A DNA stretch of 43,544 nucleotides from an uncultured archaeon (GCA_964399605.1 CAYNRH010000001.1:1-43544), one strand, 5' to 3'. Shown: positions 12,674-31,698, counted from the first letter of the stretch. Notes: generated from the letters alone by a model not told the origin. Translations and numbers: made by a program.

Positions 12674-14038
12674 CTATTTAAGTTTATCTTCTAAATAATT
12701 TTCGCATGTATCTATAAATTCTTTTTCTTTTCCCATTGGTATGAAGGCCCCGGCAGCTGCGTGGTGGCCTCCCCCATAACTTCCATATTTTTTTGTTATC
12801 TCCTCAAATAAATCCTTGAGGCTAAGCCCCCTGTCCACCAGTTCTTTTGGTGCCCTGGCGCTTATCTTCACCTCTCCGCTTTCAGTATTGGCAAAGCCAA
12901 AAACCACTCTTCCGTTATTTAATATTGAAGACTTTTCGCATATTGACATTATCGTCCCTATGAAATTTTCGTGAATTTGGTCGCCAGCTATAACATAGTA
13001 AGCATTTTTTGTTTTCCTAATCTTCTCCTCATTTTCTTTTACCCATTTTATGTATTTGGTTATAATTTTTCTATATCCTGAAAGGACTCCATCAAGCCTT
13101 TCCAGCGCAGATTTTATTCCAAGTGCAGATAATATTCCCAGAGAATGCTGGCTCATCCTTCCACATGCGTTTAATGAAGTGGCCATTTCCCTTGCATCAA
13201 AATCACTTCCGTTAAACCTGATTGTGTAGTTCTCTCCAAAAATTTCCTCCGGGTCCGATTCTTTTTCCCTTATCCTCTCACATATAATAGCGCTTGCAAG
13301 TTTTTTCATTTCATCTTCTGAAAGGTCGTTCAGGGTTTTCCATTTACCGTCTCTTTTCAGCTCTATCCCAATGGTAGAGAGAAATTGTATTGCTGCAGAC
13401 TCGTTCCCGGTTATCCCCGGTATGTATGGGTCTGTGCTGTATTCCAATGCCTTGTGAACAGGCCTGTTCATCCTTCCAAAAAGCCTTATTCCATTTTCTT
13501 TTTTCAAGACACCAAATTCAATTGCCTCATTGGCTATTTCAGTGTTGAGACCTTTCATTTTCCATCCTTCATCCTGCATATCACCTATTGCGCCAACAAT
13601 TGCAAGGTATGACAAGTCAATGTTTCTTGGGTCAAGCTTTTTTGCCAGCAAATAAGCAACTCCTGCACCACTTATCTCATTTTCTTCTTTACCAATTAGA
13701 TGGGGATTTATGTGGATTATATTCGGGTACTCCCCTGGAGGAGACGGCAAGTGGTGGTCGGCCACAATTATTTTTTTTCCTGTTGATTTGTTGAGGTCAT
13801 CAAGCATATCTAAATATCCTGCACCCAAATCTGTGAATAAAAACAGGTCAGTATCTTCTTTTTTTAATGCCTCTATTATTTCTGGCTTAACCTGTCTTGC
13901 TATTGATATGTGTATTTTCTTGCCCAGCCTGGTTAGTGAAGATAAAACAACAGCTGCAGCTGAGATTCCATCAGCATCCAGGTGAGACACTACTGTTATT
14001 CTCTCTACGCTGTTTATTTCTTTGGCTGCATCATTCAA
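12674..14038 (-). CDS. RecJ/GAN-like DHH-DHHA1 phosphoesterase
   Basis: SHLDADGISAA, VADHH and C-terminal GGGHHAAAG (DHHA1). Sits in the conserved archaeal position between rps15 and rps3ae. Confidence 0.85.
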   Translation of the reverse strand: MNDAAKEINSVERITVVSHLDADGISAAAVVLSSLTRLGKKIHISIARQVKPEIIEALKKEDTDLFLFTDLGAGYLDMLDDLNKSTGKKIIVADHHLPSPPGEYPNIIHINPHLIGKEENEISGAGVAYLLAKKLDPRNIDLSYLAIVGAIGDMQDEGWKMKGLNTEIANEAIEFGVLKKENGIRLFGRMNRPVHKALEYSTDPYIPGITGNESAAIQFLSTIGIELKRDGKWKTLNDLSEDEMKKLASAIICERIREKESDPEEIFGENYTIRFNGSDFDAREMATSLNACGRMSQHSLGILSALGIKSALERLDGVLSGYRKIITKYIKWVKENEEKIRKTKNAYYVIAGDQIHENFIGTIMSICEKSSILNNGRVVFGFANTESGEVKISARAPKELVDRGLSLKDLFEEITKKYGSYGGGHHAAAGAFIPMGKEKEFIDTCENYLEDKLK

Positions 14039-17767: not shown

Positions 17768-18174
17768 TACTTTTCACCTTCTTTTTTCTCTTCAGCTTTC
17801 TTTTCTGTTTTTTCCTCAACCTTTTTTTCTTCCTTTTTCCCTTCCTCTGTTGCTTCCTCTTTCTTTTCTTCCTTTTTGGGCTCTTCTGCACTTTCTTCTT
17901 TTTTCTCTACCTTTTCCTCGGCTTTCTTTTCCTCTATTATTGGAACTTCTTTCTCTTTCCACACATAAGCAAGAATCCTTGATTGGGTGTTTCCAACTCC
18001 GGAAATTATTCTCTTGACTTCTATGTGTTTTGGCTTTATTTTTTTCTCCTTTGCCAAATATGCCTGAACAGAAGCTTTTGAAGGAGTAGACATTCCATTA
18101 TGCTCTATAATGCCAATTATCTCATTCCTCTTAAGAAGAGGATTCTCCCTTATCTCAATTATATTTATTTTCAT
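17767..18174 (-). CDS. rps24e: 30S ribosomal protein S24e with Lys/Glu-rich C-terminal extension
   Basis: [19 protein letters not shown]...[10 protein letters not shown] core, then about 50 aa of EEKK/KKEE low complexity. Confidence 0.9.
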
Positions 18175-18188
18175 TGAACTTCACCTAT
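18167..18188. repeat. 22-nt perfect direct repeat, copy 1 (rps24e SD plus start codon)
   Basis: ATTTTCATTGAACTTCACCTAT (minus strand: ATAGGTGAAGTTCAATGAAAAT). Identical to 18296-18317. Confidence 0.85.
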
Positions 18189-18295
18189 ATCCTCAATGAA
18201 AAGTTCAAAATCTCTTTTTTGATCTTGAGATTTTGTTTGACTTTCAAAACATATCACCAACTTTTGTTTTGAGAGGTTGGAACGGAGTTCCTTTG

Positions 18296-18317
18296 ATTTT
18301 CATTGAACTTCACCTAT
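18296..18317. repeat. 22-nt perfect direct repeat, copy 2 (overlaps the spt4 stop, heads a 19-codon mini-ORF)
   Basis: Same 22-mer, 129 nt upstream (minus sense) of copy 1. Its ATG (18301-18303) opens MKIKGTPFQPLKTKVGDMF, with a stop at 18244-18246. Confidence 0.85.
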
Positions 18318-18498
18318 TAATCGATATAGCATATTTTCCAGGAACAGTTATATTCATAGCTCTTGCTATTTCGCTGTCCGGATCTATAACGATAACTATA
18401 CCCTGCCAGTTTCTTGTAAGCTTTGATGTCTTGCACGCCGGGCACACCTCGCCCATAACAAATCTTTTGCACTCAGAACACACCTTTTCCCTAACCAT
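18310..18498 (-). CDS. spt4: transcription elongation factor Spt4 (RpoE'')
   Basis: 62 aa, zinc ribbon CSECK...CPACK followed by the NGN-binding segment. Conserved position after rpoE'. Confidence 0.85.
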   Translation of the reverse strand: MVREKVCSECKRFVMGEVCPACKTSKLTRNWQGIVIVIDPDSEIARAMNITVPGKYAISINR

Positions 18499-18502
18499 AA
18501 AA

Positions 18503-19090
18503 TCACTTCTTCTTTTTAACTTCCTTTTTCCCTTCTTTTTTCTTCTTTGGAGTTTTTTTCTTTTCTGCTTCAGTCATCCAGTGCAAAGCACCCAATCCGG
18601 GCTGCCTCATTGTCAATCCAACTTTGTTCTCTTTCGTAAAAGATATGGAGATTATTCTTGCCCTGACAGTATCCCCTTCCTTGAGTATTTTCTTGCTGTC
18701 CCTTCCAACAAGGACAGAATTCTTTTTGTCATAACTTACATAATCGTCCATTATCTGTGAAATATGCGTCATTGCATCAATGGGACCTATCCTTATGAAA
18801 GCGCCAAATTCTGTTATGTCAACAACTTCCCCTATTGTAACCTCATGCTCCTCTGGGTAGTATATCAACAGCTTGAATTTCGCCGGAAAGAAAACTGCGC
18901 CATCCCCTGGTATAATCTCGCCTTCGCCAATTTCCTCAATGCTCTCCAGGTTAAGCACTATGCCCAAATCAGTATTGAAAACGCCTTCATACCTCTCCTG
19001 GACACTTTCCGATATGGCAACCTCTAAATCTTTTTCAAGCTTTTCGGGAGGCACCCTCACCGAATCCTCAACTTCTACGATTTTATACAT
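18503..19090 (-). CDS. rpoE: DNA-directed RNA polymerase subunit E' (Rpo7) with Lys-rich tail
   Basis: Rpb7-like N-domain, S1 domain (GEVVDITEFGAFIRIGPIDAMTH), and tail EAEKKKTPKKKKEGKKEVKKKK. Confidence 0.9.
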   Translation of the reverse strand: MYKIVEVEDSVRVPPEKLEKDLEVAISESVQERYEGVFNTDLGIVLNLESIEEIGEGEIIPGDGAVFFPAKFKLLIYYPEEHEVTIGEVVDITEFGAFIRIGPIDAMTHISQIMDDYVSYDKKNSVLVGRDSKKILKEGDTVRARIISISFTKENKVGLTMRQPGLGALHWMTEAEKKKTPKKKKEGKKEVKKKK

Positions 19091-19580: not shown

Positions 19581-20060
19581 ATGGGAAATAAACAATTAGA
19601 TACATATCTATTTGCTCTCGTGAAAACTGGATATAAATACCTGAAGAACGAAGAAAAGCATATAGAGCCTGAGAATATAGCAATCCACGAATATATTGAA
19701 TTGAGGGTCTATTTTATTGATAAATTGAAAAAAAGAGGAATCATAAAGGAATCTGAAGATTATATTTCAAATGTGGAAAATCTTCCAGAAAAAATCAACG
19801 ATTATGCTTATAAAAACAAATTACCTGGAATTGATGTTTCTAAATTTGAAAAGGAAGAAACTTTAATATTAAAAGAGAAAAAAATGAACTGGAGTGACCT
19901 AATAGAATTTGATAATAAACTCGAAAAAAAATACAGAAAAATGTTTGATTTTAGTGGTATAAATGGAGATTTTGGAATGTGGCGGGCATTTGGAGTTTCT
20001 TCAGAAATTGATGGTTTGGAACTAAAAGAAAAACTAATCGAAGAGTTAAAAACTTTGTAA
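19581..20060 (+). CDS. hypothetical protein
   Basis: 159-aa ORF with ATG start. No motif recognised. Confidence 0.5.
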   Translation: MGNKQLDTYLFALVKTGYKYLKNEEKHIEPENIAIHEYIELRVYFIDKLKKRGIIKESEDYISNVENLPEKINDYAYKNKLPGIDVSKFEKEETLILKEKKMNWSDLIEFDNKLEKKYRKMFDFSGINGDFGMWRAFGVSSEIDGLELKEKLIEELKTL

Positions 20061-20254: not shown

Positions 20255-21655
20255 GTGATATGTATGAATACTTATGTCTTTGTGGATGGTTTTGGTAAAT
20301 TTGGTAGTCAAACTTTTTCCTCTCTTGTAAGGGCAATAGAGGATATGGCAACCGATGGAAAGAATATACAACTATATGGAATTCAAGACCCATCTAAAGA
20401 AGCTAGAAAAAATGCAGAAAAAAAGGCAAAAGAACTGGGCGTATCACCAAAGATTTATGATACAGATGAAAAAATGAATGAAGATATTTCAATGCTTCAA
20501 AAAAATGGTCATGCTATTTGGGTTTATAATGTATCTCCGTCACAAAATCATTTTAGAAGTAATGAACATTATACAAAAAAACACGTAAGAGTATTATCAG
20601 AAAAACCTCTTGTTCTAACAATAGAAGAAAAAGAAAAATTGATGAGAACATGGGATACGTATAGAACACAAATAGACCATGCAAAGGTCGAAACTGAAAA
20701 CCCAGCATTTATAGGCGCCAAACTTCTTTTAGACGAATATAAAATACATGTTGAAGACATAAAGCTGCTAAGAGCAAACAGTATAGGAATTCTGAAGGCG
20801 GTTTCCAATTCAATGAAGGAAGAAAAAAGGATTGGAGTAGAGGGTGGCTCTAGATTAGATAAAGATCACGACAGAGCTTATATCACTCTTCTTTTGAAAG
20901 ATTATATTAAAGGTATAAACATTGAAAAATCTGAAATTGAGGTTTTCAATCCATATGATTTAAAATCTGAATCATTTTTGGATGTATGGGGCAAAGAAAC
21001 AAAGAAAATTGATACAAATACTGCCGATGGTTCATTAACATCTGAAGAAAAAATAATCACAAAAAACGGCAACATTAGTTTAGAAGTTTATACAGGTTGG
21101 TTGGGTGTAAAAGATGAACATATGAAAACAATAAAGAAAATTAAAAACGAGACAAAAAAAATTGGTATACCACTTCTACCATACGCTTCAAATACAAATA
21201 TTGTAGATATAGGAGAAGATAAAGTTCAGTTTGATTATGAAGAAATAAGAATGTTTCATCTAAGTGGATATGAAGATGGAGGAAGAAGTGTAGAAATAAT
21301 AGGAAACATGATTCCACCAAGAAACAATTGGGATGTACCCGGAAGTGCTAATTTCTTAATGTCTATATGGGATGAAGAGGTGACAATTAACTTAATTAGT
21401 GAAGAAAATAGAATAAAAGCCCTTACAGATGATGTAAAGAAAGTAGAAAAAATGAGTGGCGACCAAATGACAAGATTATTTAAAAAATCTATTCTGGGAA
21501 CTTATCCAATAACTGGGGAATTAGCATTCAGAGATATAGGATTGACTCTAGAAAGCAAGAATAAAGGAATTGAAAAAGCGATTCAAGAATCATCTTTTGA
21601 AAAGGAACTTAAGAAAGCTGAAAAATGGATAAGAAAGAAAGTAAAGATTATGTGA
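20255..21655 (+). CDS. Gfo/Idh/MocA-family NAD(P)-dependent oxidoreductase, long form (paralogue A)
   Basis: N-terminal dinucleotide-fold start (VFVDGFGKFG), VLSEKPL (EKP motif), GGSRLDKDHDRAY. 466 aa versus about 330-350 typical. The track start is a GTG inside the SD; the likely start is the ATG 9 nt downstream (about 20264). Paralogous to 28601-29815 (EVYTGWLGVKDE versus GIHTGWLGVPDL). Confidence 0.65.
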   Translation: MICMNTYVFVDGFGKFGSQTFSSLVRAIEDMATDGKNIQLYGIQDPSKEARKNAEKKAKELGVSPKIYDTDEKMNEDISMLQKNGHAIWVYNVSPSQNHFRSNEHYTKKHVRVLSEKPLVLTIEEKEKLMRTWDTYRTQIDHAKVETENPAFIGAKLLLDEYKIHVEDIKLLRANSIGILKAVSNSMKEEKRIGVEGGSRLDKDHDRAYITLLLKDYIKGINIEKSEIEVFNPYDLKSESFLDVWGKETKKIDTNTADGSLTSEEKIITKNGNISLEVYTGWLGVKDEHMKTIKKIKNETKKIGIPLLPYASNTNIVDIGEDKVQFDYEEIRMFHLSGYEDGGRSVEIIGNMIPPRNNWDVPGSANFLMSIWDEEVTINLISEENRIKALTDDVKKVEKMSGDQMTRLFKKSILGTYPITGELAFRDIGLTLESKNKGIEKAIQESSFEKELKKAEKWIRKKVKIM

Positions 21656-21660
21656 TTAAA

Positions 21661-22428
21661 ATGCCGAAAGCAATATTTATAGACCCACACGGAGACGACC
21701 CTATAATAGCCGTTGGTGGAACTCAGATTCAATTACTGGACAGTGGATGGGAAATAAAACAAATTCAAATGACAGACGGAAGGCATGGTAGTAATATAAT
21801 GGACCCCGAGACAACCAAAATAGTTAGAGAAAAAGAGGGCAAAAAGGTTAGGGAACACCTTGGCATAAAAGACTTTTATAATTTTGGTGTTGAAGATGGT
21901 AAGCTGGATTCTTTAGACCCTGAAAAGAGGGGGGAAGTTATAGAAGAGTTGAAAAGACAAATAGAAGATTACAAAGCGGATGTAGTTTTTATTCCAGGAA
22001 GGGCCGAAGGCCATCCCGACCACAAGGCAACTTATAAAATATGCCATAAAGCAATTGAAATGTCAGAAAATAAGCCATTGGAAGTTCATTATTTAGTGTG
22101 GTTGTTTCCATTTCACAGACATGACCCAGGTAAGTTAGAAAAAGTCTTAAAAGTAAACATAGATGGAGAATTTAATAAAAAAATAGAAGCCATAAGAATG
22201 AATGAGTCGCAGGAGCGAGAAGGCAGGTATTCAGAAATAGTAAAACATATTAACGGTTATTTCTCTTTGATATATTCTGCTTATAGGGATTTGGAGGAAA
22301 AAACATGCGAGATAATTGCTCTCCCAAAAATAAATGAAAAATATGATACTTTTGTTAAAGGTCTCAGGAGCTGGGATGATGTTACAGAAGTGTTCCATGG
22401 TAGAAAAGAGGAGAAAATTAAGGCATAA
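21661..22428 (+). CDS. PIG-L/LmbE-family N-acetylglucosaminyl deacetylase
   Basis: DPHGDDPII (AHPDD-type motif) and GHPDHKAT (HPDH motif). The track start 21625 overlaps the upstream gene; ATG 21661 follows GTGAT and is preferred. Confidence 0.8.
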   Translation: MPKAIFIDPHGDDPIIAVGGTQIQLLDSGWEIKQIQMTDGRHGSNIMDPETTKIVREKEGKKVREHLGIKDFYNFGVEDGKLDSLDPEKRGEVIEELKRQIEDYKADVVFIPGRAEGHPDHKATYKICHKAIEMSENKPLEVHYLVWLFPFHRHDPGKLEKVLKVNIDGEFNKKIEAIRMNESQEREGRYSEIVKHINGYFSLIYSAYRDLEEKTCEIIALPKINEKYDTFVKGLRSWDDVTEVFHGRKEEKIKA

Positions 22429-22439
22429 GGTGATTGTTT

Positions 22440-23162
22440 ATGAATGAAAAGGTATCTGAAAGAAAATTTGATGAAGAGTATTTCAATACAAATGAGTTTT
22501 TTAAGAAAGATCCATGGGGATTTGGGAGGTCTCCATATGAATTAAACAAATATAAAAGACAAATCGATTTGATAAAAGCATTGATATCTCCAAAACCTGA
22601 AGTGGAAAATATTCTGGAGGTGGGATGTGCGGAGGGTATTTTTACAGAAATGCTACTTAAAGAATTTCCAAATTCAAAGATTACCGGCATAGAGTTTTCT
22701 AAAAATGCCTTTAAAAGAGCTAAAAAAAGACTTGAATCATATGGCGAAAGAGTAGAACTAATTCAAGGTGACATAGTTGAAAAGGCCAAAGAATTGCCAG
22801 AAATGAATTTCGATATAGCTACAATGAGTGAAGTGATACTTTATATAGGAAACGATTTTAGTTTTACGACAATAAATGATAGTGTTTTTTATCCTGTGGC
22901 AAAATCACTCGAACTCGGAGGAGGTTTAGTTATAGCACAAATAGTTGAACAAAAGGGGTATCCAGAAGGACCATTAACCAAAAAACCAATCATACATTCA
23001 TACAAAACTATGCTTGCTGAACAGCATATTCTAAAAAAGGTTTATGATGAATCATTTTTGGAATATAAAGACGAAGAAAATCAGGTTTTCAACTATGAAA
23101 TTTGGGGTTTCAGAAGAGTTGATGAAAAGAAAGAGCCACACTGGAGATGGAGAAAAGTATGA
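22440..23162 (+). CDS. NodS-like class I SAM-dependent methyltransferase
   Basis: KKDPWGFGRSPYELNKYKRQ box, then motif I ILEVGCAEGIFTEML and post-II SEVILYIG. I associate this combination with NodS-type (PF05401-like) methyltransferases. ATG after AAGGTGAT. Confidence 0.75.
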   Translation: MNEKVSERKFDEEYFNTNEFFKKDPWGFGRSPYELNKYKRQIDLIKALISPKPEVENILEVGCAEGIFTEMLLKEFPNSKITGIEFSKNAFKRAKKRLESYGERVELIQGDIVEKAKELPEMNFDIATMSEVILYIGNDFSFTTINDSVFYPVAKSLELGGGLVIAQIVEQKGYPEGPLTKKPIIHSYKTMLAEQHILKKVYDESFLEYKDEENQVFNYEIWGFRRVDEKKEPHWRWRKV

Positions 23163-23350
23163 GGGGTATTGACTTAATTGTTGAAACAATGAGAAAGGCT
23201 GGTAGACTTGCAGCCAATGTAGTTTTGGAAGAGTACAGAAATGGTACACCCTTCTTCCACATAGAGACATCGCAGACAAAAAATAGATACTTGAAACTAT
23301 AGACATGGAATCTCTACAAGAAATATATAATTACGGGGTGGTTTGATGAC
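23159..23350 (+). pseudogene. possible remnant of an inositol-monophosphatase/FBPase-family gene
   Basis: 46-codon ORF MRGIDLIVETMRKAGRLAANVVLEEYRNGTP... resembles IMPase N-termini. After a stop, a shifted frame reads ADKK*ILETIDMESLQEIYNYGVV, recalling the following (T)xD...E..I...L segment. No full-length ORF exists. Confidence 0.3.
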
Positions 23351-23372
23351 AAAATTATCCGAAGATAATCTA

Positions 23373-24062
23373 CTACATTAGCTTGAAGACTTTATCAATT
23401 TCCTTTATATTCTTTATCCAGTAGTCTGGTTTTCCTTCTTTTTTCTCGTTGAGTAGGACTGTTTTCATCCCGATTTTTTTGGCTAATTCCAAATCCCTTT
23501 CCCAAGAATCGCCAACAAAAACAATTTCTTTGGGTTTAACGCCATCCAATTTTTTTAGTATAATTTCATAATACCTCTCAGATGGCTTGAGCTCGCCTGT
23601 ATCGTCGGGAGAAATCAAAAATCTAAAATATTCTCTCCAGTCATCAAAAACCTTGTTTAATTTTTTTATTAGGCTTTTCCTATATTCATTGCTCGCAACT
23701 CCAAGAATGTATTTATCCTTTAAATTTTTTATTAACTCCTTCGTTCCATCTTCAAACTGAAGTCTTTCTGTTATATTTTTCCAAAATATTTGCAATGCCT
23801 CATTCGTTAATTTTTCTGCTTCTTTTTCTTCTATTCCTAAATCAACAAGAAGTTTTTTTGTGCTGTATTCCCTGCTCCTCATGCGAGCATCATTTATTCC
23901 ATCGTCTAACACATCCTTTACTATCTTCCACCATTTTTCACTGAGCTTACTTGCATCTATTCCCGTCTTTTTCTCTAAAAAAAGAAATTTTTCCCTGTAT
24001 GCGCTTTCTCTCTCAGGACTTTTATACAAGGTATTGTCTGCATCAAATATTATTGCCTTCAT
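23373..24062 (-). CDS. HAD-superfamily hydrolase (subfamily IA-like phosphatase)
   Basis: Motif I IFDADNTLY (DxDxT), motif IV VGDSWERD, capped helical insert. Confidence 0.8.
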   Translation of the reverse strand: MKAIIFDADNTLYKSPERESAYREKFLFLEKKTGIDASKLSEKWWKIVKDVLDDGINDARMRSREYSTKKLLVDLGIEEKEAEKLTNEALQIFWKNITERLQFEDGTKELIKNLKDKYILGVASNEYRKSLIKKLNKVFDDWREYFRFLISPDDTGELKPSERYYEIILKKLDGVKPKEIVFVGDSWERDLELAKKIGMKTVLLNEKKEGKPDYWIKNIKEIDKVFKLM

Positions 24063-24068
24063 TCAGAA

Positions 24069-25316
24069 TCACTTTTTCTTCTTTTTAACTTCTTGAAATT
24101 TGGTGTAGAGCAACGTGTTTGACTCCAAATTTTCCATAACCACTGTATTTGGCCCTATTGTACAGTTGGACCCCACCAAAACACCTGGCATAAATCTAAC
24201 CGAAATACCGGTTCTTGTGTTGTTACCCATAATTACACCAAGCGATTTTCTTCCTGTTTCAACTCTCTTTCCCTTGACAACTGAATTGACTATTCCACGG
24301 TCAATTCTTACATCTGCTGTTATTGTTCCTGCACCCACCCTGCAGTCTTCCCCGATTATAGAATCTCCAAAGAATCCTGAGTGAGTGTGAGTACCTCTTT
24401 GAACTATTGTTCTTGTAACCTCCGCCCCCATTCCTATCATGACATCATCTTCCAGGTTTGTGTAATCCCTTATGAGGGTGTTGTTTCCTATTATCACGTT
24501 GTTGCCGATATAGCATGGCCCATTTATTGTTGCGCCTCTGAAAATCCTTGTGTTTTCACCTATGTATACGTCTCCATTTATGACAACGGATGGGTCTATT
24601 TTGGCAGAATCTGCTATGAAAGAACCCATATTTTTCATAAGTCTTTTAACTACATCAAGCATATGCCATGGGTATTTCAGAGATACAGTATCCTTTTCTG
24701 TTACAAATACAGGTACGTCGTTTTTCTTCATATAAAGGTCCAATGCCTCTTCATAATTGTAATGGTGTTGAGGCACTTTGTCCAAGTAGTCAAAGAATTC
24801 AGGATGTAGAAGATACATGGACACGGCTTTTATATTTGATGGCTCTTTACCTCTCTCAGGCTTTTCTATTATTCCTTTTGCAAAATTATTTTTTACATTC
24901 AAAATACCATATATCCACGGTGTATCAGTTTCTCTTCCCAAAAGTGTTATCGGTGCACTATTCTCTTTCGATGTATTCATCATTGGAGTTATGAATTCCG
25001 ATGCATCTACATGGTGTGCCCCCAAAACAAAAAACTGCCTTTTTAAAAGATTCCTTGCCTGGGAAAGAGCATTACCCATTCCCTTTGGCTCTTTCTGAAC
25101 AACAAACTTTACATCCGGGTCATTAATAACCTTCTCTATTTCTCTCCCGGGCCCCTGAATAATTATTATATCCTTTATCCCAGCAGATTTTATGCTATCT
25201 ATGGTATGCTGTATTAACGGTTTCCCCATGATATTGTTCAAAGACTTATGCCTCCCCTCTGAAAGAGGCCAGAATCTTGAAGATTCCCCTGCAGCAAGTA
25301 TCACAGCCTGTGTCAT
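24069..25316 (-). CDS. glmU: bifunctional sugar-1-phosphate nucleotidyltransferase/acetyltransferase (archaeal GlmU-like)
   Basis: ILAAGESSRFWPL nucleotide-binding loop and a C-terminal left-handed beta-helix with hexapeptide repeats (IGNNVIIGNNTLI, IGEDCRVGAGT). Confidence 0.8.
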   Translation of the reverse strand: MTQAVILAAGESSRFWPLSEGRHKSLNNIMGKPLIQHTIDSIKSAGIKDIIIIQGPGREIEKVINDPDVKFVVQKEPKGMGNALSQARNLLKRQFFVLGAHHVDASEFITPMMNTSKENSAPITLLGRETDTPWIYGILNVKNNFAKGIIEKPERGKEPSNIKAVSMYLLHPEFFDYLDKVPQHHYNYEEALDLYMKKNDVPVFVTEKDTVSLKYPWHMLDVVKRLMKNMGSFIADSAKIDPSVVINGDVYIGENTRIFRGATINGPCYIGNNVIIGNNTLIRDYTNLEDDVMIGMGAEVTRTIVQRGTHTHSGFFGDSIIGEDCRVGAGTITADVRIDRGIVNSVVKGKRVETGRKSLGVIMGNNTRTGISVRFMPGVLVGSNCTIGPNTVVMENLESNTLLYTKFQEVKKKKK

Positions 25317-26626
25317 TCAACCACCCCCATAATTTCTTCCAAAGCTTTTTGAGACTCCTTCTCGTCTTTGCTTTCAACCACAGCCCTGATTACATTTGAT
25401 GTTCCTGAAGGCCTTATCAGAGCATTGGCGTTACCAATCTTGAATTTAACTCCATCCAAATCAGAAATAATCTCATACTTCTGCTTTATTTTTTTCCCTA
25501 TAAGATTCATTTTGTTTATTTTTTCTTCTTGGCTTTCAAGCTTGATTTTGTGTTTCTTCACGAAATAAGTTGGAAATTTACTCCTTATTTCATTTAGGTT
25601 CTGTAAGTAAGCAAGAATCAAGCTTCCAAAAGTTCCAGAGTTATACCAGCAGAATTTGGGAAAAGCATAGTGGCCATTTGGCTCTCCACAAAACTCTGCC
25701 CCTATTTCTATTGCTTTTTTTGAAACAAAAATATCCCCTACTCTGGTATAGACAATATTTGAGCCAGAAACCTCATTGAGCATATGCGATGTATCCAATG
25801 AAGCAGAAATGTTGCTTGGTTTTATAACACTGGCAAAAATGGCAAACATCTCGTCTCCAGATATCCATCCGTTCCTATCAAAAGCAAAAATTCTGTCTGC
25901 ATCCGGGTCAGTGCCAACTACCAAATCCGCATTTTCTTTTTTCATCAGCCCAAAAAGATATAGCCTGGTTTCCTCCTCTGGTTCAGGATCCAAATTACAA
26001 TCAGGTGTAGTACTGCAATTAACTTCAATTACACTTGCACCCAATTTCTTTAATAGTTTTGGCAAATGTAAAGAAGCTCCACCATTTGCACAGTCAACAA
26101 TGATCTTTTTTCCATTGAGAGATTTTATTTCTCCCATGTATTCTTTTAGGGCATTCAATGCTGCTTCCTCATAAATCCTTGAAAATTCTTCAAATTTATC
26201 CGACAATTGACCGGCTTCTTCAGATGTTTTAAATTTTTCATCAAGAAATATCTCTTTTATTTTTGCCATTTCCTCATTGCTGAATCCGTTCCCCTTTTGG
26301 TAGAAAAATTTGAAGCCATTCATCTCCCAGGGATTATGAGAAGCTGTGATTATTATTGAAAAATCTGCTTTGTAATAACTGCCGGCAAGGGCAACCTTAT
26401 CAGATGTGCTAATTCCAATGTCAATAACACTCACACCCGTAGATAAAATACCTCTTATGAGAGCTTTTTTCAAGGATGGAGAACTTTTTCTGGTATCACA
26501 CCCAACAACTATTAATTTTTTTCCATATGTCCCTGCAGTTTTTCCTAACTTTTCCGAAAAATTTTCATCAAGCTCTTCCGGATAATAACCTCTTATATCA
26601 TATCTCATGAATACTTTCGGTACCAT
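25313..26626 (-). CDS. glmM: phosphoglucosamine mutase / phosphohexomutase
   Basis: TASHNPWEMNGFK phosphoserine loop, GTDPDADR metal loop, GEPNGH sugar loop. 4-nt overlap with glmU. Confidence 0.85.
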   Translation of the reverse strand: MVPKVFMRYDIRGYYPEELDENFSEKLGKTAGTYGKKLIVVGCDTRKSSPSLKKALIRGILSTGVSVIDIGISTSDKVALAGSYYKADFSIIITASHNPWEMNGFKFFYQKGNGFSNEEMAKIKEIFLDEKFKTSEEAGQLSDKFEEFSRIYEEAALNALKEYMGEIKSLNGKKIIVDCANGGASLHLPKLLKKLGASVIEVNCSTTPDCNLDPEPEEETRLYLFGLMKKENADLVVGTDPDADRIFAFDRNGWISGDEMFAIFASVIKPSNISASLDTSHMLNEVSGSNIVYTRVGDIFVSKKAIEIGAEFCGEPNGHYAFPKFCWYNSGTFGSLILAYLQNLNEIRSKFPTYFVKKHKIKLESQEEKINKMNLIGKKIKQKYEIISDLDGVKFKIGNANALIRPSGTSNVIRAVVESKDEKESQKALEEIMGVVE

Positions 26627-26636
26627 TTTAACACCC

Positions 26637-28400
26637 CTATTTTACAACAACGCTTTTAGCTAAATTCCTTGGCTTGTCCGGATCATATCCTCTTAAAACA
26701 GCCAACTGATATCCAAGAATTTGCATTGGAATAACATGAGTAATTGGGTCTGCTACATCAACCTCTGGAACCCTTATCCAATAATCAAAAACCTCATTGT
26801 TTTCGGGTCCCACACCAATTATATAACCACCACGGCTCTTTATTTCAATGGCATTGGAAATTATGTCCTTCTCTGTATCCTTTGAAACAAAAACTATCGT
26901 TGGCGTATCATTTTCTATTAAGGCAATGGAGCCATGCTTTAAATCCCCGCCAGCAAAACCCTCTGTGTGTATGTACGATACCTCTTTGAGCTTCAGGGCA
27001 GCCTCCAAAGCAGTGGGGTACATGAGCCCCCTGCCTATCGTAAATATGTGCTTTTTGTTTTTCAGTATTTCAGCGAGCTTCTTCAAATGTTTCCTTGTAC
27101 TCAATGCAGTTAAATTGTAAACAAGGCTATGAAGATTTTTTAGTTTATTTTTTCCCTCCTCTAAATTATCAGCAACACCATAAGCCAAGAGCAAGAGCAA
27201 CGCAACCTGGGATGTGTATGCCTTTGTTGAAACAACACATATTTCAGGACCATTTTTTATATAAAGCGACTTATCGGATTCCCTGTCAAGAGAAGACCCT
27301 TTGACATTTAAAATTGAAAATACTTTTCCGCCTGCCTTCTTTGCAGCCCTCACTGCCTCCAGAGTGTCTGCAGTTTCACCAGACTGGGAAACAGCAATAA
27401 CCAGACTGTTTTCATTTAATAAATGCTTGAAATTGGAAAATTCAGAACCAGAAAAAGCATGAATGTATTTGTTGGAAATTTTTGAAAACAAATAACTTCC
27501 CAAGAGACAAGCATAATATGCAGTCCCACACCCAACAAAAAAAACATCTCTGGCATTTCTTATATCGCTGACAATTTCTTTTATCTTCTCTTCATCCTGC
27601 TCAATCGCTTTCTGAATCGTTTCCGCCTGCTCCATTATCTCCTTGAGCATATAATGGTCAAATTCACCCTTTTCTGCCTGCTCGACACGCCAATCCACGC
27701 TTGATATTTCCTTTTTTACTTCTTTGCCTTTATCTATGTTGAAAATCTTTATGCTTCCATTCAATACAGCCATGTCACCATCAGACATGTATATAACATT
27801 TTTTGTATGGTCAAGAAATGCGGGTATGTCCGAAGCTGGAAAGTACTCCCCATCGCCAACACCAATAACAAGCGGTGCTTTCCTTCTTGCAGCAATCATC
27901 TTTTTTTCATTTTTGTTGAATATTAACAAGGCATACTGCCCTTCAAGCTTTTTCAAGGCTGATTTTGTTGCCTCCACGAAATCCTTGCCGCTTTTCATTT
28001 CTTCTCCTATGAGATGCGCTATTATCTCCGTGTCCGTCTCTGATTTTAAATTATGACCCACCAGAGATTTTCTAAGTTCCTGGTAGTTCTCTATTATTCC
28101 ATTGTGGACTAAAACTATGTCACCAGAACAGCCTGTATGGGGATGTGCATTTTCCTTGGTTACACCGCCATGTGTTGCCCATCTCGTATGGCCAATGCCA
28201 ATAGAACCGGGTAAATCTGTTAAGTTGAGTTTTTTATGTATCTCATCAATTTTTCCAGCATCTTTCTTTAGGTGTATTTTCCCATTATGGAACGTGGCTA
28301 TTCCAGCAGAATCATAACCCCTGTATTCAAGATTCTTCAGCCCCTGAAATATTATGGGAGCTGCCTGCTTATTTCCAACATAACCTATTATTCCACACAT
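26637..28400 (-). CDS. glmS: glutamine--fructose-6-phosphate aminotransferase
   Basis: MCGIIGY Ntn-Cys start, two SIS domains, C-terminal DKPRNLAKSVVVK. Confidence 0.95.
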   Translation of the reverse strand: MCGIIGYVGNKQAAPIIFQGLKNLEYRGYDSAGIATFHNGKIHLKKDAGKIDEIHKKLNLTDLPGSIGIGHTRWATHGGVTKENAHPHTGCSGDIVLVHNGIIENYQELRKSLVGHNLKSETDTEIIAHLIGEEMKSGKDFVEATKSALKKLEGQYALLIFNKNEKKMIAARRKAPLVIGVGDGEYFPASDIPAFLDHTKNVIYMSDGDMAVLNGSIKIFNIDKGKEVKKEISSVDWRVEQAEKGEFDHYMLKEIMEQAETIQKAIEQDEEKIKEIVSDIRNARDVFFVGCGTAYYACLLGSYLFSKISNKYIHAFSGSEFSNFKHLLNENSLVIAVSQSGETADTLEAVRAAKKAGGKVFSILNVKGSSLDRESDKSLYIKNGPEICVVSTKAYTSQVALLLLLAYGVADNLEEGKNKLKNLHSLVYNLTALSTRKHLKKLAEILKNKKHIFTIGRGLMYPTALEAALKLKEVSYIHTEGFAGGDLKHGSIALIENDTPTIVFVSKDTEKDIISNAIEIKSRGGYIIGVGPENNEVFDYWIRVPEVDVADPITHVIPMQILGYQLAVLRGYDPDKPRNLAKSVVVK

Positions 28401-28600: not shown

Positions 28601-29815
28601 TTATAATAATTTTTTCATAATATACTCCCTGGTTTTTTCTGCCTCTTTTTCCGGATTTATTGGATTCTCAAGGGATTTATCTCTTGCCTCGAACAAAAAC
28701 ATGGAAAACGAATCTATTCTTTCTCTATCTATAAAGAACTTTTCTTTTCCTGCAGCGGTGTATACTGCATTTCTTAAAACAATGTATAACTGGTCATTCT
28801 TTTCTAAAGTAATCTCCTTCCATTTATCGCCCTTCAAAAAAAACTGAAAGTGCTTCATGTCGCCATACATTTCTATCGGCTTTCCATCTTTTTCTCCTTT
28901 TATTACAAAAATTCTTAGCTCCTCATCAAGGAATTTCTTGCCATTTATTTCAGTTTCCTTGGAAAACTTAATTTTTTTGCCTGTATTTTTTTCAATTTCC
29001 CTTACAATATCCAAATCTGGCACTCCAAGCCACCCCGTATGTATCCCTATAGGATCCTTTCCAGCCAGCCCATTGATGTTGGACTGCGCCGTAGCTGGAT
29101 TTTTACCACCAAAAATTTTAAGCCTTATGTCAACAAGTTTGGGGTTCTCTATAGAATTTATCATAAAAAAATCTACTTTTGAATCAGTAAGCTTCATATT
29201 AGTGGAATCAAAAAAATCAAGGAGATAAATCTCGTGGATAGCTTTGTCTAAAATATCACCGCCCTGGACACCATACCTGTGATCTCCATGAAGTATTTTC
29301 TTCAAACCAATTGAGTTATACCTGAAAGTTTCCACGGATAAAACGTTTATTCTCTCCTCTTTCAAAAATCTTTTTGCAAACAGAACCGCAGGATTAAAAT
29401 ATTCAATGGCATCAAAGCCCCAATTTCCATCCTGTTTTTCCACCATTTCTTCATCTTCCTTTGTAAGATAAGGTGGTTTTTCGGCAAGATGAAAGAATTT
29501 ATATTCTATGCTCTTTAGAACGTGTGACGTATGAAGCTCTCCTGGACTGGCGTCATATATCAAAACATTGCTCATTCCTGATGCATGATTGTACATATCC
29601 TGTGTGTATGAAAATATTTTTGTTTTTAACTTTTCCTTTTCCATTATTTTCTCCAAATCTGCCCTGGCTTTTGGGTCTATATCGCAAATCCCTTCCAGTA
29701 TTAGGTTAACATCTCTTAACTCCTTTGAAAGCTGTACAAACTTCTTAAAGGCAATCTTACCCCATTTTCCATAACCTATCTGAAAGACATGAACAACTGG
29801 CTTTAATGAACTCAT
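28601..29815 (-). CDS. Gfo/Idh/MocA-family oxidoreductase, long form (paralogue B)
   Basis: VFQIGYGKWGK (GxGxxG), HLAEKPP (EKP), GGDILDKAIHEIY; 404 aa. Clear similarity to 20255-21655. Confidence 0.65.
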   Translation of the reverse strand: MSSLKPVVHVFQIGYGKWGKIAFKKFVQLSKELRDVNLILEGICDIDPKARADLEKIMEKEKLKTKIFSYTQDMYNHASGMSNVLIYDASPGELHTSHVLKSIEYKFFHLAEKPPYLTKEDEEMVEKQDGNWGFDAIEYFNPAVLFAKRFLKEERINVLSVETFRYNSIGLKKILHGDHRYGVQGGDILDKAIHEIYLLDFFDSTNMKLTDSKVDFFMINSIENPKLVDIRLKIFGGKNPATAQSNINGLAGKDPIGIHTGWLGVPDLDIVREIEKNTGKKIKFSKETEINGKKFLDEELRIFVIKGEKDGKPIEMYGDMKHFQFFLKGDKWKEITLEKNDQLYIVLRNAVYTAAGKEKFFIDRERIDSFSMFLFEARDKSLENPINPEKEAEKTREYIMKKLL

Positions 29816-30639: not shown

Positions 30640-30759
30640 CTATATCACCACCAACTCTTTAATTTTAAATGAGAAACTATTTAAACTTTATTAATAATTG
30701 TTAAATACCATTACAAAAATATTTATATACTTTATGGTGTATAATAATAAGTGATAATC

Positions 30760-31698
30760 ATGGAAAAGAAAAACCTTTTGTTCAAGGGAAGTGATGGAAA
30801 ATATTATTCTAAAAATATAGTGATATTTGACCATCCCAAAAAGCTGGCTCCGGCATCAAGTGATATGGCATGGAGAATCTTACAGTCGCTGAATGAAAAG
30901 CCGACATATCCAAATGAACTTGCAAAAAAATTAAAAATTCATGAGCAGAAGATATATTACCATATAAACAAGATGATGAATTCTGGACTGATAGAAGTTG
31001 TAAGGGAAGAGGGCAGGCATGGTGCAACCTGTAAGTTCTTTGCACCAACGGCAAAGGCATTCGGATTTGAATTTCCTGACGGAGAAACTGAAGTTAAGAC
31101 AACAAATAAGGACATAAATCCACATTTAAAGGATTTTTTTTATGAATTCATAAAAAATGGCATTTTTGACGGCTCAATAGTCGTTGGCTCCCCAATTCCG
31201 CATGGGCCGTACCTGACAGCAGCAAGAGATGGCCATTTTTCAACCCAGTTGGGAATCTTTCTCGGCAGCTTTTGCTCATTGAAAAACAGGTTTGTCATAA
31301 AACTGGATACAGAAGTAAAGGCTGAAAATGCCCAGAACAGGAACATGATACTCATAGGCGGTCCAATAACAAACATGATATTTTCAGAATTGAACGAAAG
31401 ATTAAAGGTAAATTTCAAGTGGAACAGGTCGTGGATAATAAGCTCAGGAGAAAACGAATATATAGGGGAACTCGACGGCGTCATAGCAAAAATAACAAAC
31501 CCGTGGGATGAGACAAAGAAAATAGTTATATTTGCAGGGGCACATGCAGAAGGTACAAAAACGTGTATTTTGGCTCTAACGCAGCACTACGAAAAAATAT
31601 TGAAAGACTATAATAAAAACAAGGATTTTTACAAAATTATAAGGGGTTTGGATAAAGACGGAGATGGAAAAGTAGACGATATAGAAATTTTAGAGTGA
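30760..31698 (+). CDS. winged-helix (ArsR-like) DNA-binding protein with a large uncharacterised C-terminal domain
   Basis: MAWRILQSLNEKPTYPNELAKKLKIHEQKIYYHINKMMNSGLIEV is a wHTH. About 200 further aa (GSPIPHGPY, ILIGGPITN, VIFAGAHAEGT) are of unknown family. The track's GTG start lies in the SD; ATG at 30760. Confidence 0.6.
   Translation: MEKKNLLFKGSDGKYYSKNIVIFDHPKKLAPASSDMAWRILQSLNEKPTYPNELAKKLKIHEQKIYYHINKMMNSGLIEVVREEGRHGATCKFFAPTAKAFGFEFPDGETEVKTTNKDINPHLKDFFYEFIKNGIFDGSIVVGSPIPHGPYLTAARDGHFSTQLGIFLGSFCSLKNRFVIKLDTEVKAENAQNRNMILIGGPITNMIFSELNERLKVNFKWNRSWIISSGENEYIGELDGVIAKITNPWDETKKIVIFAGAHAEGTKTCILALTQHYEKILKDYNKNKDFYKIIRGLDKDGDGKVDDIEILE

Follow-up and report, generated by a model that had tools for sequence, protein, structure and literature searches.

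PIG-L/LmbE deacetylase and NodS-like methyltransferase genes paired in a strain-variable island of a DPANN archaeon

In the rhizobial NodB-NodS system (3OFJ/3OFK), a de-N-acetylase exposes the amine of a glucosamine residue, which can then be methylated by NodS, an enzyme dependent on S-adenosylmethionine (SAM). Here, we describe a comparable gene pair in a 43,544-nt stretch of DNA from an uncultured archaeon (GCA_964399605.1, CAYNRH010000001.1:1-43544; hereinafter, the window, meaning the whole stretch analysed). Three consecutive genes on the plus strand, g1 (20264-21655, 463 aa), g2 (21661-22428, 255 aa) and g3 (22440-23162, 240 aa), encode a divergent relative of the Gfo/Idh/MocA oxidoreductases, a predicted deacetylase of the PIG-L/LmbE family and a predicted NodS-family methyltransferase, respectively. 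Our best hypothesis, to which we assign a probability of roughly 45%, is that g2 would de-N-acetylate a hexosamine that g3 would then N-methylate, following the NodB-NodS logic with an unrelated deacetylase fold in the role of NodB. All three families are already known and are annotated automatically, and the NodB/NodS logic itself is established; what is new is the predicted use of this logic with an LmbE-fold deacetylase, in DPANN archaea and within a strain-variable island.

The likeness to the Nod system, predicted here from the genes, is partial. As in NodS, a DPW...(Y/F)E..(K/R)(Y/H) box lies at the N terminus of g3, ahead of the SAM-binding fold, but the two proteins are 24-31% identical, and g3 falls below the NodS equivalog cut-off and outside the NodS clade. 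NodB has the fold of carbohydrate esterase family 4 (CE4), whereas g2 has the LmbE/PIG-L fold, and the host is a DPANN archaeon. Furthermore, true nodS genes adjoin nodA and nodU, whereas no nodA, nodB or nodC gene was found in the window or in related loci. The closest solved relatives of g2 are the diacetylchitobiose deacetylases (Dac) of Pyrococcus and Thermococcus (3WE7, 4XM0, 8BGN), which are likewise archaeal and cytoplasmic and share with it the HxDD and HxxH zinc motifs. Dac deacetylates the non-reducing N-acetylglucosamine (GlcNAc) of chitobiose, the position that is also deacetylated by NodB. However, g2 belongs to a separate subfamily from DPANN, Patescibacteria and Chloroflexi, with 23-26% identity to Dac, and its locus, devoid of chitinase, glucosaminidase (GlmA) and GlmD genes, is coupled instead to a methyltransferase and to the biosynthetic GlmS, GlmM and GlmU genes.

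The gene order also resembles that of a bacterial cassette exemplified by Acinetobacter baumannii ACICU_02432-02435, in which a PIG-L gene is followed by a NodS-family methyltransferase gene in overlapping or near-touching frames. The four A. baumannii genes shift expression jointly, by 31- to 62-fold (PMC5660220). The cassette also includes genes for an acyl-CoA dehydrogenase (ACAD)-like protein and a glycosyltransferase, both missing from the archaeal locus; conversely, the archaeal pair is located beside Gfo-like oxidoreductase and uridine diphosphate (UDP)-GlcNAc genes, and its methyltransferase falls into a separate grade of the family tree. Finally, g1 shares with described Gfo/Idh/MocA enzymes (4MKX/4N54; NF040723) the N-terminal Rossmann domain, GxGxxG, EKP and a GG...D..H region, but differs from them in a weak profile match (E 9e-8), scores of 21.5-34.7 bits against a cut-off of 450, a C-terminal domain that matches no Pfam model, two insertions, a shifted His and membership in a DPANN-restricted family.

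The deacetylase and methyltransferase genes

The window has a GC content of ~36% and originates from a DPANN archaeon related to Aenigmarchaeota, given that the closest named homologues of g1, g2 and g3 are encoded by metagenome-assembled genomes (MAGs) of Aenigmarchaeota. All three open reading frames (ORFs) are intact and, with ATG starts each preceded by a GGTGAT-like Shine-Dalgarno motif, are separated by 5 nt (g1-g2) and 11 nt (g2-g3), as proposed in an earlier sequence-only reading of this DNA; the genes are probably co-transcribed. These starts agree with those of separately called homologues (protein P0001, 463 aa; P0002, 240 aa) and with the orthologue N-termini MPKAIF/MPRAIF in related loci L001 and L003. 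Pfam searches confirmed the three family assignments of that reading (PF01408, PF02585 and PF05401).

The match of g2 to PF02585 (PIG-L) is strong (84.2 bits against a cut-off of 28.2), and both expected motifs are indeed present, PHGDD at residues 9-13 and HPDH at residues 118-121. Residues H10, D12, D13, H118, D120 and H121 are invariant across the 34 aligned members of its subfamily, which consists of proteins of ~250-258 aa from Aenigmarchaeota, Nanohaloarchaea, one MAG of Patescibacteria and Chloroflexi/Dehalococcoidia and has a strongly conserved C-terminal half of its own. The AlphaFold2 model of g2 has a predicted local distance difference test score (pLDDT) of 93.4, and in a Foldseek search against the PDB, the top 42 matches all have the LmbE fold, including Dac, TT1542, BC1534, BshB, teicoplanin deacetylases, MshB and the hydratase GalB. 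The nearest folds are those of the Pyrococcus diacetylchitobiose deacetylases (E 2e-14, template modelling (TM) score 0.65-0.69, 23-26% identity), with TT1542, BC1534 and BshB ranking next, and the best solved relative by sequence is 8bgn (7.8e-13). The ratio of nonsynonymous to synonymous substitution rates (dN/dS) relative to the L003 lineage is 0.14, indicative of purifying selection. We predict that g2 is a zinc-dependent de-N-acetylase of the PIG-L/LmbE family.

Similarly, g3 scores 39.6 bits against PF05401 (NodS; cut-off 24) and contains the motifs DPWGFGRSPYELNKY at residue 24 and LEVGCAEGIFT. A profile search recovered 928 relatives of the methyltransferase, 60 of them below 1e-10. 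In an alignment of 27 full-length relatives, the family comprises proteins of ~210-240 aa with an N-terminal box, F...DPW.F..S.YE..KY.RQ, and a C-terminal YEIW.F motif, and all 27 match PF05401. When the profile of this alignment was compared with solved structures, NodS (3OFJ; 2.5e-23, 85.8 bits) was by far the best match, with an alignment that extends over positions 9-201 of 218 and includes the box; the next solved relatives were phosphoethanolamine N-methyltransferases. Annotated nodS genes, with 26-31% identity, were also retrieved by a tblastn search of plasmids with g3. A regular expression for the box detected g3, most of the DPANN orthologues, the methyltransferases of the bacterial cassettes, the fusion methyltransferases and three annotated NodS proteins, and none of the ten generic methyltransferase matches. 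In a neighbour-joining tree (200 columns), the box-bearing and generic sequences were split with 82% bootstrap support, and true NodS clustered with bacterial deacetylase-linked methyltransferases (72%). The NodS-likeness proposed from the sequence is thus upheld, because the box, the 3OFJ match and the tree set g3 apart from generic methyltransferases. With a dN/dS of 0.16 relative to the L003 lineage, the gene also evolves under purifying selection. We predict g3 to be a class I SAM-dependent methyltransferase of the NodS family, and the existence of membrane-anchored, GT2-fused and flippase-fused relatives hints at glycan or lipid-linked substrates.

A member of the methyltransferase family with 38% identity is encoded in cultivable Haloferax species (Haloferax gibbonsii ATCC 33959; L056, 6512-8621), in which the family might be studied in a tractable archaeon. 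Its gene is located directly behind that of a protein combining ribbon-helix-helix (RHH) and SIS domains, in a region with genes for an NrS-1-like polymerase and pentapeptide-repeat proteins that may be a mobile element. Across the Haloferax and Methanothrix loci, the neighbours include the RHH-SIS protein, which is remotely GlmS-like, the NrS-1-like polymerase, pentapeptide repeats and an FAD oxidoreductase. These neighbourhoods were uninformative, and the idea that the methyltransferase is generally tied to GlmS-like SIS proteins was dropped.

Recurrence of the deacetylase-methyltransferase pair

Comparison across genomes renders a functional link between the deacetylase and the methyltransferase, which the sequence-only reading had suggested, well supported. 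Among DPANN archaea, at least six lineages have the pair side by side. The loci are the window, L001/L015 (a complete 833-kb genome), L002-L004, L009/L010/L016 and L017, and L018 and L024, across which the identity of the PIG-L proteins ranges from 78% down to 40%. In L002-L004, a short-chain dehydrogenase/reductase (SDR) gene lies between the two. L018 and L024 belong to Nanohaloarchaea, and the reading frames of the L024 pair share 4 nt. Moreover, the functions are joined within single polypeptides: two metagenomic proteins (P0174 and P0196) consist of PIG-L fused to a NodS-like domain, in two others (P0110 and P0112) the methyltransferase is fused to a CE4 deacetylase, and a protein encoded by plasmid pSK03 of Rhizobium leguminosarum combines glycosyltransferase, methyltransferase and CE4 domains. 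Other fusions link the methyltransferase to GT2 or to a MurJ-like protein.

In bacteria, the cassette of ACAD-like, PIG-L, NodS-like methyltransferase and glycosyltransferase genes, with overlapping frames, was found in Novosphingobium, Deinococcus, Acinetobacter and one metagenome. In Rubrobacter, the PIG-L position of the cassette is filled by a CE4 deacetylase. Loci with the PIG-L or CE4 version include L126, L127, L129, L133 and L047, which are bacterial plasmids and a metagenome contig. That two unrelated deacetylase folds share the place beside the methyltransferase is the strongest argument that the latter acts on the product of the former. The ACAD fold includes amino-sugar N-oxygenases, such as KijD3 and ORF36, which would fit a chemistry centred on the sugar amine. 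The searched phage collection contained only two matches, both Acinetobacter records in which LmbE adjoins the methyltransferase. Searches of a literature library retrieved no paper linking PIG-L/LmbE with NodS, no described function for the bacterial ACAD-like/PIG-L/methyltransferase/glycosyltransferase cassette, and nothing relevant on N-methylglucosamine in archaea or on LmbE in DPANN. We also observed that the cassette is often found near stress genes, for instance, otsA/otsB in Acinetobacter, catalase in Novosphingobium, and BON and MscS genes in Deinococcus.

In the pathway that we propose, the hexosamine would come from the adjacent GlmS-GlmM-GlmU operon or would be imported. g2, as a cytoplasmic LmbE-fold zinc hydrolase, would strip the N-acetyl group from a GlcNAc-type substrate, with a nucleotide sugar, a sugar phosphate, a chitobiose-like glycoside and lipid-linked GlcNAc as the candidates. 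The 2-amino group thus exposed would be methylated by g3 at the expense of SAM. g1, the competence of which is uncertain, would add an accessory redox step, probably an oxidation or reduction of this hexosamine scaffold. What we infer is the substrate, the sequence of the reactions and the placement of the methyl group on nitrogen.

The mosaic island, its remnants and its neighbours

The trio is not a co-conserved unit, an outcome that the sequence-only reading had named as counting against its interpretation: a sister strain does without the methyltransferase, g1 is lineage-specific and each lineage retains a different subset of genes. The sister strain is represented by L005, a 92-kb contig of a 97%-identical strain that matches the window up to the end of the PIG-L gene. 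There, an SDR gene is followed by an inositol monophosphatase (IMPase)-like gene (318 aa), a gene for a 371-aa protein and a split paralogue of glmS, after which homology to the window returns at a HAD-family gene. The second GlmS (15058-17719 of L005) is divided into a 265-aa glutamine amidotransferase (GATase)/glutaminase gene and a separate 626-aa protein, in which two SIS domains are preceded by ~280 extra residues, weakly HAD-like; split GlmS is also found in L053 and L142. Thus, five genes of L005 are absent from the window, namely, those for SDR, IMPase-like, 371-aa, GATase and SIS proteins. The 371-aa protein (L005, 13941-15056; L003, 3616-4731; L053, 6745-7938) adjoins methyltransferase or CofD/YvcK-like genes in several DPANN lineages; its motifs FDMNGP and GDKPGD are vaguely HAD-like, and it has no relative in Pfam, NCBIfam or PDB.

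The 210 nt between g3 and the next gene (23163-23372), an apparent spacer, contain remnants of two of these genes, as revealed by blastx and by blastn against L005. The IMPase-like gene is represented by its 5' end (23159-23275, plus strand; approximately the first 38 codons), the ATG of which overlaps the stop codon of g3 and in which 29 of 33 residues are identical to residues 6-38 of the 318-aa L005 protein, and by its 3' end (23281-23346, plus strand; the last 21 codons, in another frame), which agrees with residues 298-318 at 19 of 21 positions. At the nucleotide level, window positions 23176-23265 correspond to 12999-13088 of L005, and 23280-23367 to 13875-13962, the ~780 bp interior of the gene being deleted in the window. 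The truncated start of the 371-aa gene (MTKLSED...; 23346-23381, plus strand) follows. At position 23367, homology leaps from L005 13962 to 17700, so that ~3.7 kb of the sister strain sequence is missing.

Other lineages show further arrangements. In L002-L004, the order is metallo-beta-lactamase (MBL)-fold protein, PIG-L, SDR, methyltransferase, 371-aa protein and GATase, whereas L001 carries a second PIG-L, a DUF218 protein, PIG-L, methyltransferase, IMPase-like protein and a second methyltransferase. The simplest scenario suggested by these comparisons is an ancestral order of PIG-L, SDR, methyltransferase, IMPase-like, 371-aa and split GlmS genes, followed by lineage-wise losses. The trio of the window is what this strain has kept of a longer tailoring operon of mosaic composition, a deletion derivative with pseudogene remnants and an accident of gene loss. 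Between the two strains, g1 and PIG-L are 99% identical and the flanks 95-99%; the difference is too small to claim a recent inter-strain exchange of g1 and PIG-L.

The first gene of the trio resembles Gfo/Idh/MocA enzymes in its N-terminal domain alone, which matches PF01408 (GFO_IDH_MocA) with 32.8 bits (cut-off 24). The translation contains GFGKFG, corresponding to GxGxxG, and SEKP, so that the EKP motif reported from the sequence stands; the GG..D...H motif reported with it does not, the His lying one residue early. The region reads GGSRLDKDHD, with a D-x2-H spacing and an Asp at the canonical His position, whereas five paralogues of g1 all have LDKxxHE, in which D-x3-H is kept. In the same vein, g1 is longer than its relatives, not by ~120 aa as had been estimated but by ~40-60 aa over its own family of 404-425 aa proteins; compared with the family alignment, the excess consists of two insertions of ~12 and ~30 aa. 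This family is confined to DPANN and is 24-28% identical to g1, the sole close homologue of which is the strain copy (99% identical protein). Beyond residue 133, no Pfam model matches g1, PF02894 included. The AlphaFold2 model, built from a three-sequence alignment (mean pLDDT 38), displays a confident beta-alpha-beta fold over residues 1-112, and from residue 113 to residue 463 its pLDDT stays below 50. Inositol dehydrogenases, the nearest, albeit weak, solved relatives of the family, can be aligned with the family profile to position ~205 at most. Collectively, g1 is a lineage-specific, divergent duplicate of a DPANN oxidoreductase, with a different first gene in other lineages, and its activity is uncertain because the catalytic motif is altered.

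A regular copy of the same family (404 aa) is encoded just past glmS (28601-29815, minus strand). This protein has no Pfam match, is closely related to its orthologue in L011 (phmmer, 3e-51) and retains the canonical motif GGDILDKAIHE; its top NCBIfam match, an archaeal UDP-GlcNAc 3-dehydrogenase, gives only 34.7 of the 450 bits required. Members of the family are encoded directly upstream of a GlmU-like nucleotidyltransferase paralogue in 19 of 21 loci, then usually followed by GlmU and GlmM, which marks them as enzymes of a nucleotide-sugar pathway. The window also encodes a winged-helix protein (ArsR/HTH_20; 30751-31698, plus strand), the C-terminal domain of which is S-layer-like. Its homologues adjoin the Gfo-like/GlmU cluster in many loci of Nanohaloarchaea and Aenigmarchaeota, which makes it a candidate for regulating the hexosamine locus.

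The UDP-GlcNAc genes are next door to the trio, as previously noted, but they are convergent to it, on the minus strand, and span positions 23373-28400. The hexosamine operon begins with a HAD-family hydrolase gene (23373-24062; Pfam Hydrolase and HAD_2), which is conserved beside GlmU in L001 and L005, and a HAD-family gene is also found at this place in L009 according to precomputed Pfam annotation. The next gene encodes archaeal bifunctional GlmU (24069-25316; TIGR03992, 296.7 bits, cut-off 292.1), predicted to be a sugar-1-phosphate nucleotidylyltransferase/acetyltransferase, followed by a GlmM-like phosphoglucosamine mutase (25313-26626; TIGR03990 Arch_GlmM, 324.8 bits, below the cut-off of 439) and GlmS, a glutamine--fructose-6-phosphate transaminase (26637-28400; TIGR01135, 694.7 bits, cut-off 418). 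The island is therefore located between housekeeping genes and a convergent HAD-GlmU-GlmM-GlmS operon predicted to make UDP-GlcNAc. Archaeal housekeeping genes of the window include those for Kae1/TsaD, RIO kinase, S24e, S27ae, Spt4, Rpo7, eIF2-gamma, aIF5B, S6e and class I LysRS; at the S24e/Spt4/Rpo7 junction (18086-18585), identity to L005 dips to 87.6%, with 95-99% in the surroundings. Approximately 200 nt upstream of g1, a conserved hypothetical protein of 159 aa is encoded (19581-20060, plus strand), which matches no Pfam or NCBIfam model. Its orthologues occupy the same position in L002, L005 and L006, between a PIN-domain gene and the island, and it is kept even in the lineage where an MBL-fold gene replaces g1. 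A scan of the window yielded no tRNA and no Rfam match.

Competing explanations and biological meaning

Several observations weigh against sequential deacetylation and N-methylation. g3 is not a NodS orthologue: it reaches 50.8 bits against the NodS equivalog (NCBIfam NF041650), for which the cut-off is 300, and it is placed in a poorly resolved archaeal grade outside the clade uniting NodS and the bacterial deacetylase-linked methyltransferases. Generic Pfam models, namely, Methyltransf_31, Methyltransf_12 and Methyltransf_25, score slightly above NodS (50-52 bits), and g3 may act by O-methylation or on a non-sugar acceptor. The pairing is also far from universal. The sister strain (L005/L006) keeps g1 and PIG-L with the SDR gene in the place of the methyltransferase gene, PIG-L occurs without the methyltransferase in L007, L011, L021 and L022 (DPANN and Patescibacteria), and in the Chloroflexi clade of the subfamily, the methyltransferase is never present; hence, PIG-L does not depend on it. 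Conversely, PIG-L lies within 8 kb of a methyltransferase-family gene at only ~11 of 78 loci, and outside DPANN, most loci of the family (those of Methanothrix, Haloferax, Chloroflexi and most Nonomuraea) have no PIG-L in that range. Finally, the locus is decaying in the strain represented by the window.

Alternatively, g2 could be an amino-sugar scavenging deacetylase, with the methyltransferase and g1 as unrelated or optional passengers, an explanation that we regard as the main rival and consider possible although doubtful. Imported GlcNAc or chitobiose would be deacetylated and phosphorylated, and then channelled through GlmM and GlmU to UDP-GlcNAc and, via GlmS-type isomerase chemistry, to fructose-6-phosphate. 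Indeed, in most DPANN loci and one locus of Patescibacteria, PIG-L adjoins GlmU, GlmM, GlmS or a YvcK-like CofD homologue, and this GlmU-type context holds with or without the methyltransferase, which the sister strain lacks; ROK sugar kinases and MFS/EamA transporters are encoded nearby in L001, L011 and L024; and the closest solved relatives of g2, the diacetylchitobiose/GlcNAc deacetylases of Thermococcales, are catabolic. Such salvage is also favoured by the proposal that imported GlcNAc sustains a cultivated nanohaloarchaeon, serving both energy supply and glycosylation (PMC7443923). However, genes for a glucosaminidase, a chitinase, a ROK kinase or an obvious sugar transporter are absent from the window, the structural likeness between g2 and Dac is moderate (TM score ~0.66, 23-26% identity), and salvage leaves unexplained the adjacency of PIG-L and the methyltransferase, their fusions and the exchange of PIG-L for CE4. 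The two functions are compatible and can coexist. The remnants behind g3 raise the further question of whether the trio works at all: it could be the deletion leftover of a tailoring operon, part of a non-working pathway, with its tight spacing a product of deletion history. Pieces of the IMPase-like and 371-aa genes directly behind g3, the absence from the window of the SDR, IMPase-like, 371-aa, GATase and SIS genes, the differing gene subsets retained in related lineages and the shifted catalytic His of g1 are all in line with decay. Nevertheless, such a loss of the pathway seems unlikely, given that no ORF of the trio is disrupted, the catalytic and SAM-binding motifs are conserved, the dN/dS values of PIG-L and the methyltransferase relative to the L003 lineage are 0.14-0.16, the g1 protein is 99% identical between strains, and the pair alone recurs in several other lineages.

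Highly improbable, by contrast, is a role of g2 as an orthologue of BshB, MshB or PIG-L in the synthesis of a bacillithiol- or mycothiol-like thiol or of a glucosamine-inositol lipid akin to glycosylphosphatidylinositol (GPI). BshB1 and BshB2 are the top NCBIfam matches of g2, inositol dehydrogenases are the nearest solved relatives of the Gfo family, and an IMPase-like gene was part of the putative ancestral cluster, but the scores for BshB1, BshB2 and MshB (55.6, 46.1 and 15.1 bits) fall far short of the respective cut-offs (182.5, 195 and 224). Furthermore, no BshA/MshA-type glycosyltransferase, BshC/MshC ligase, inositol-phosphate synthase or PIG-A homologue is encoded in the window, and these partners were likewise unseen among the labelled genes of related loci. 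To our knowledge, DPANN archaea are generally without lipid biosynthesis, which also counts against this role. With the equivalog cut-offs failed and the partner genes missing, we rejected the thiol-cofactor and GPI-like functions.

The preferred reading, deacetylation by g2 followed by N-methylation by g3, builds on the intact genes, their family membership and fold, the synteny, the fusions and the purifying selection shown above. A wider and distinctly more tentative proposal is that PIG-L and the NodS-family methyltransferase constitute a widespread two-enzyme module, present in DPANN, in several bacterial phyla and as fused proteins, which would make N-methyl-glucosamine residues. In DPANN, the product might be a new N-methylated hexosamine on surface glycans or scavenged lipids, and strains might toggle the module through gain and loss of tailoring genes in the mosaic island. 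If so, this would be a new sugar modification in archaeal glycobiology, and the rhizobial NodB/NodS chemistry would represent one case of a broader module with at least two origins, based on unrelated deacetylase folds. The presence of the module in tractable Acinetobacter, Deinococcus and Novosphingobium makes it testable without cultivation of the archaeon. DPANN archaea live attached to their hosts, with surface glycans as the likely interface, and a tailoring island that varies between strains and adjoins the genes for UDP-GlcNAc synthesis would be a candidate for determining specificity towards hosts or viruses.

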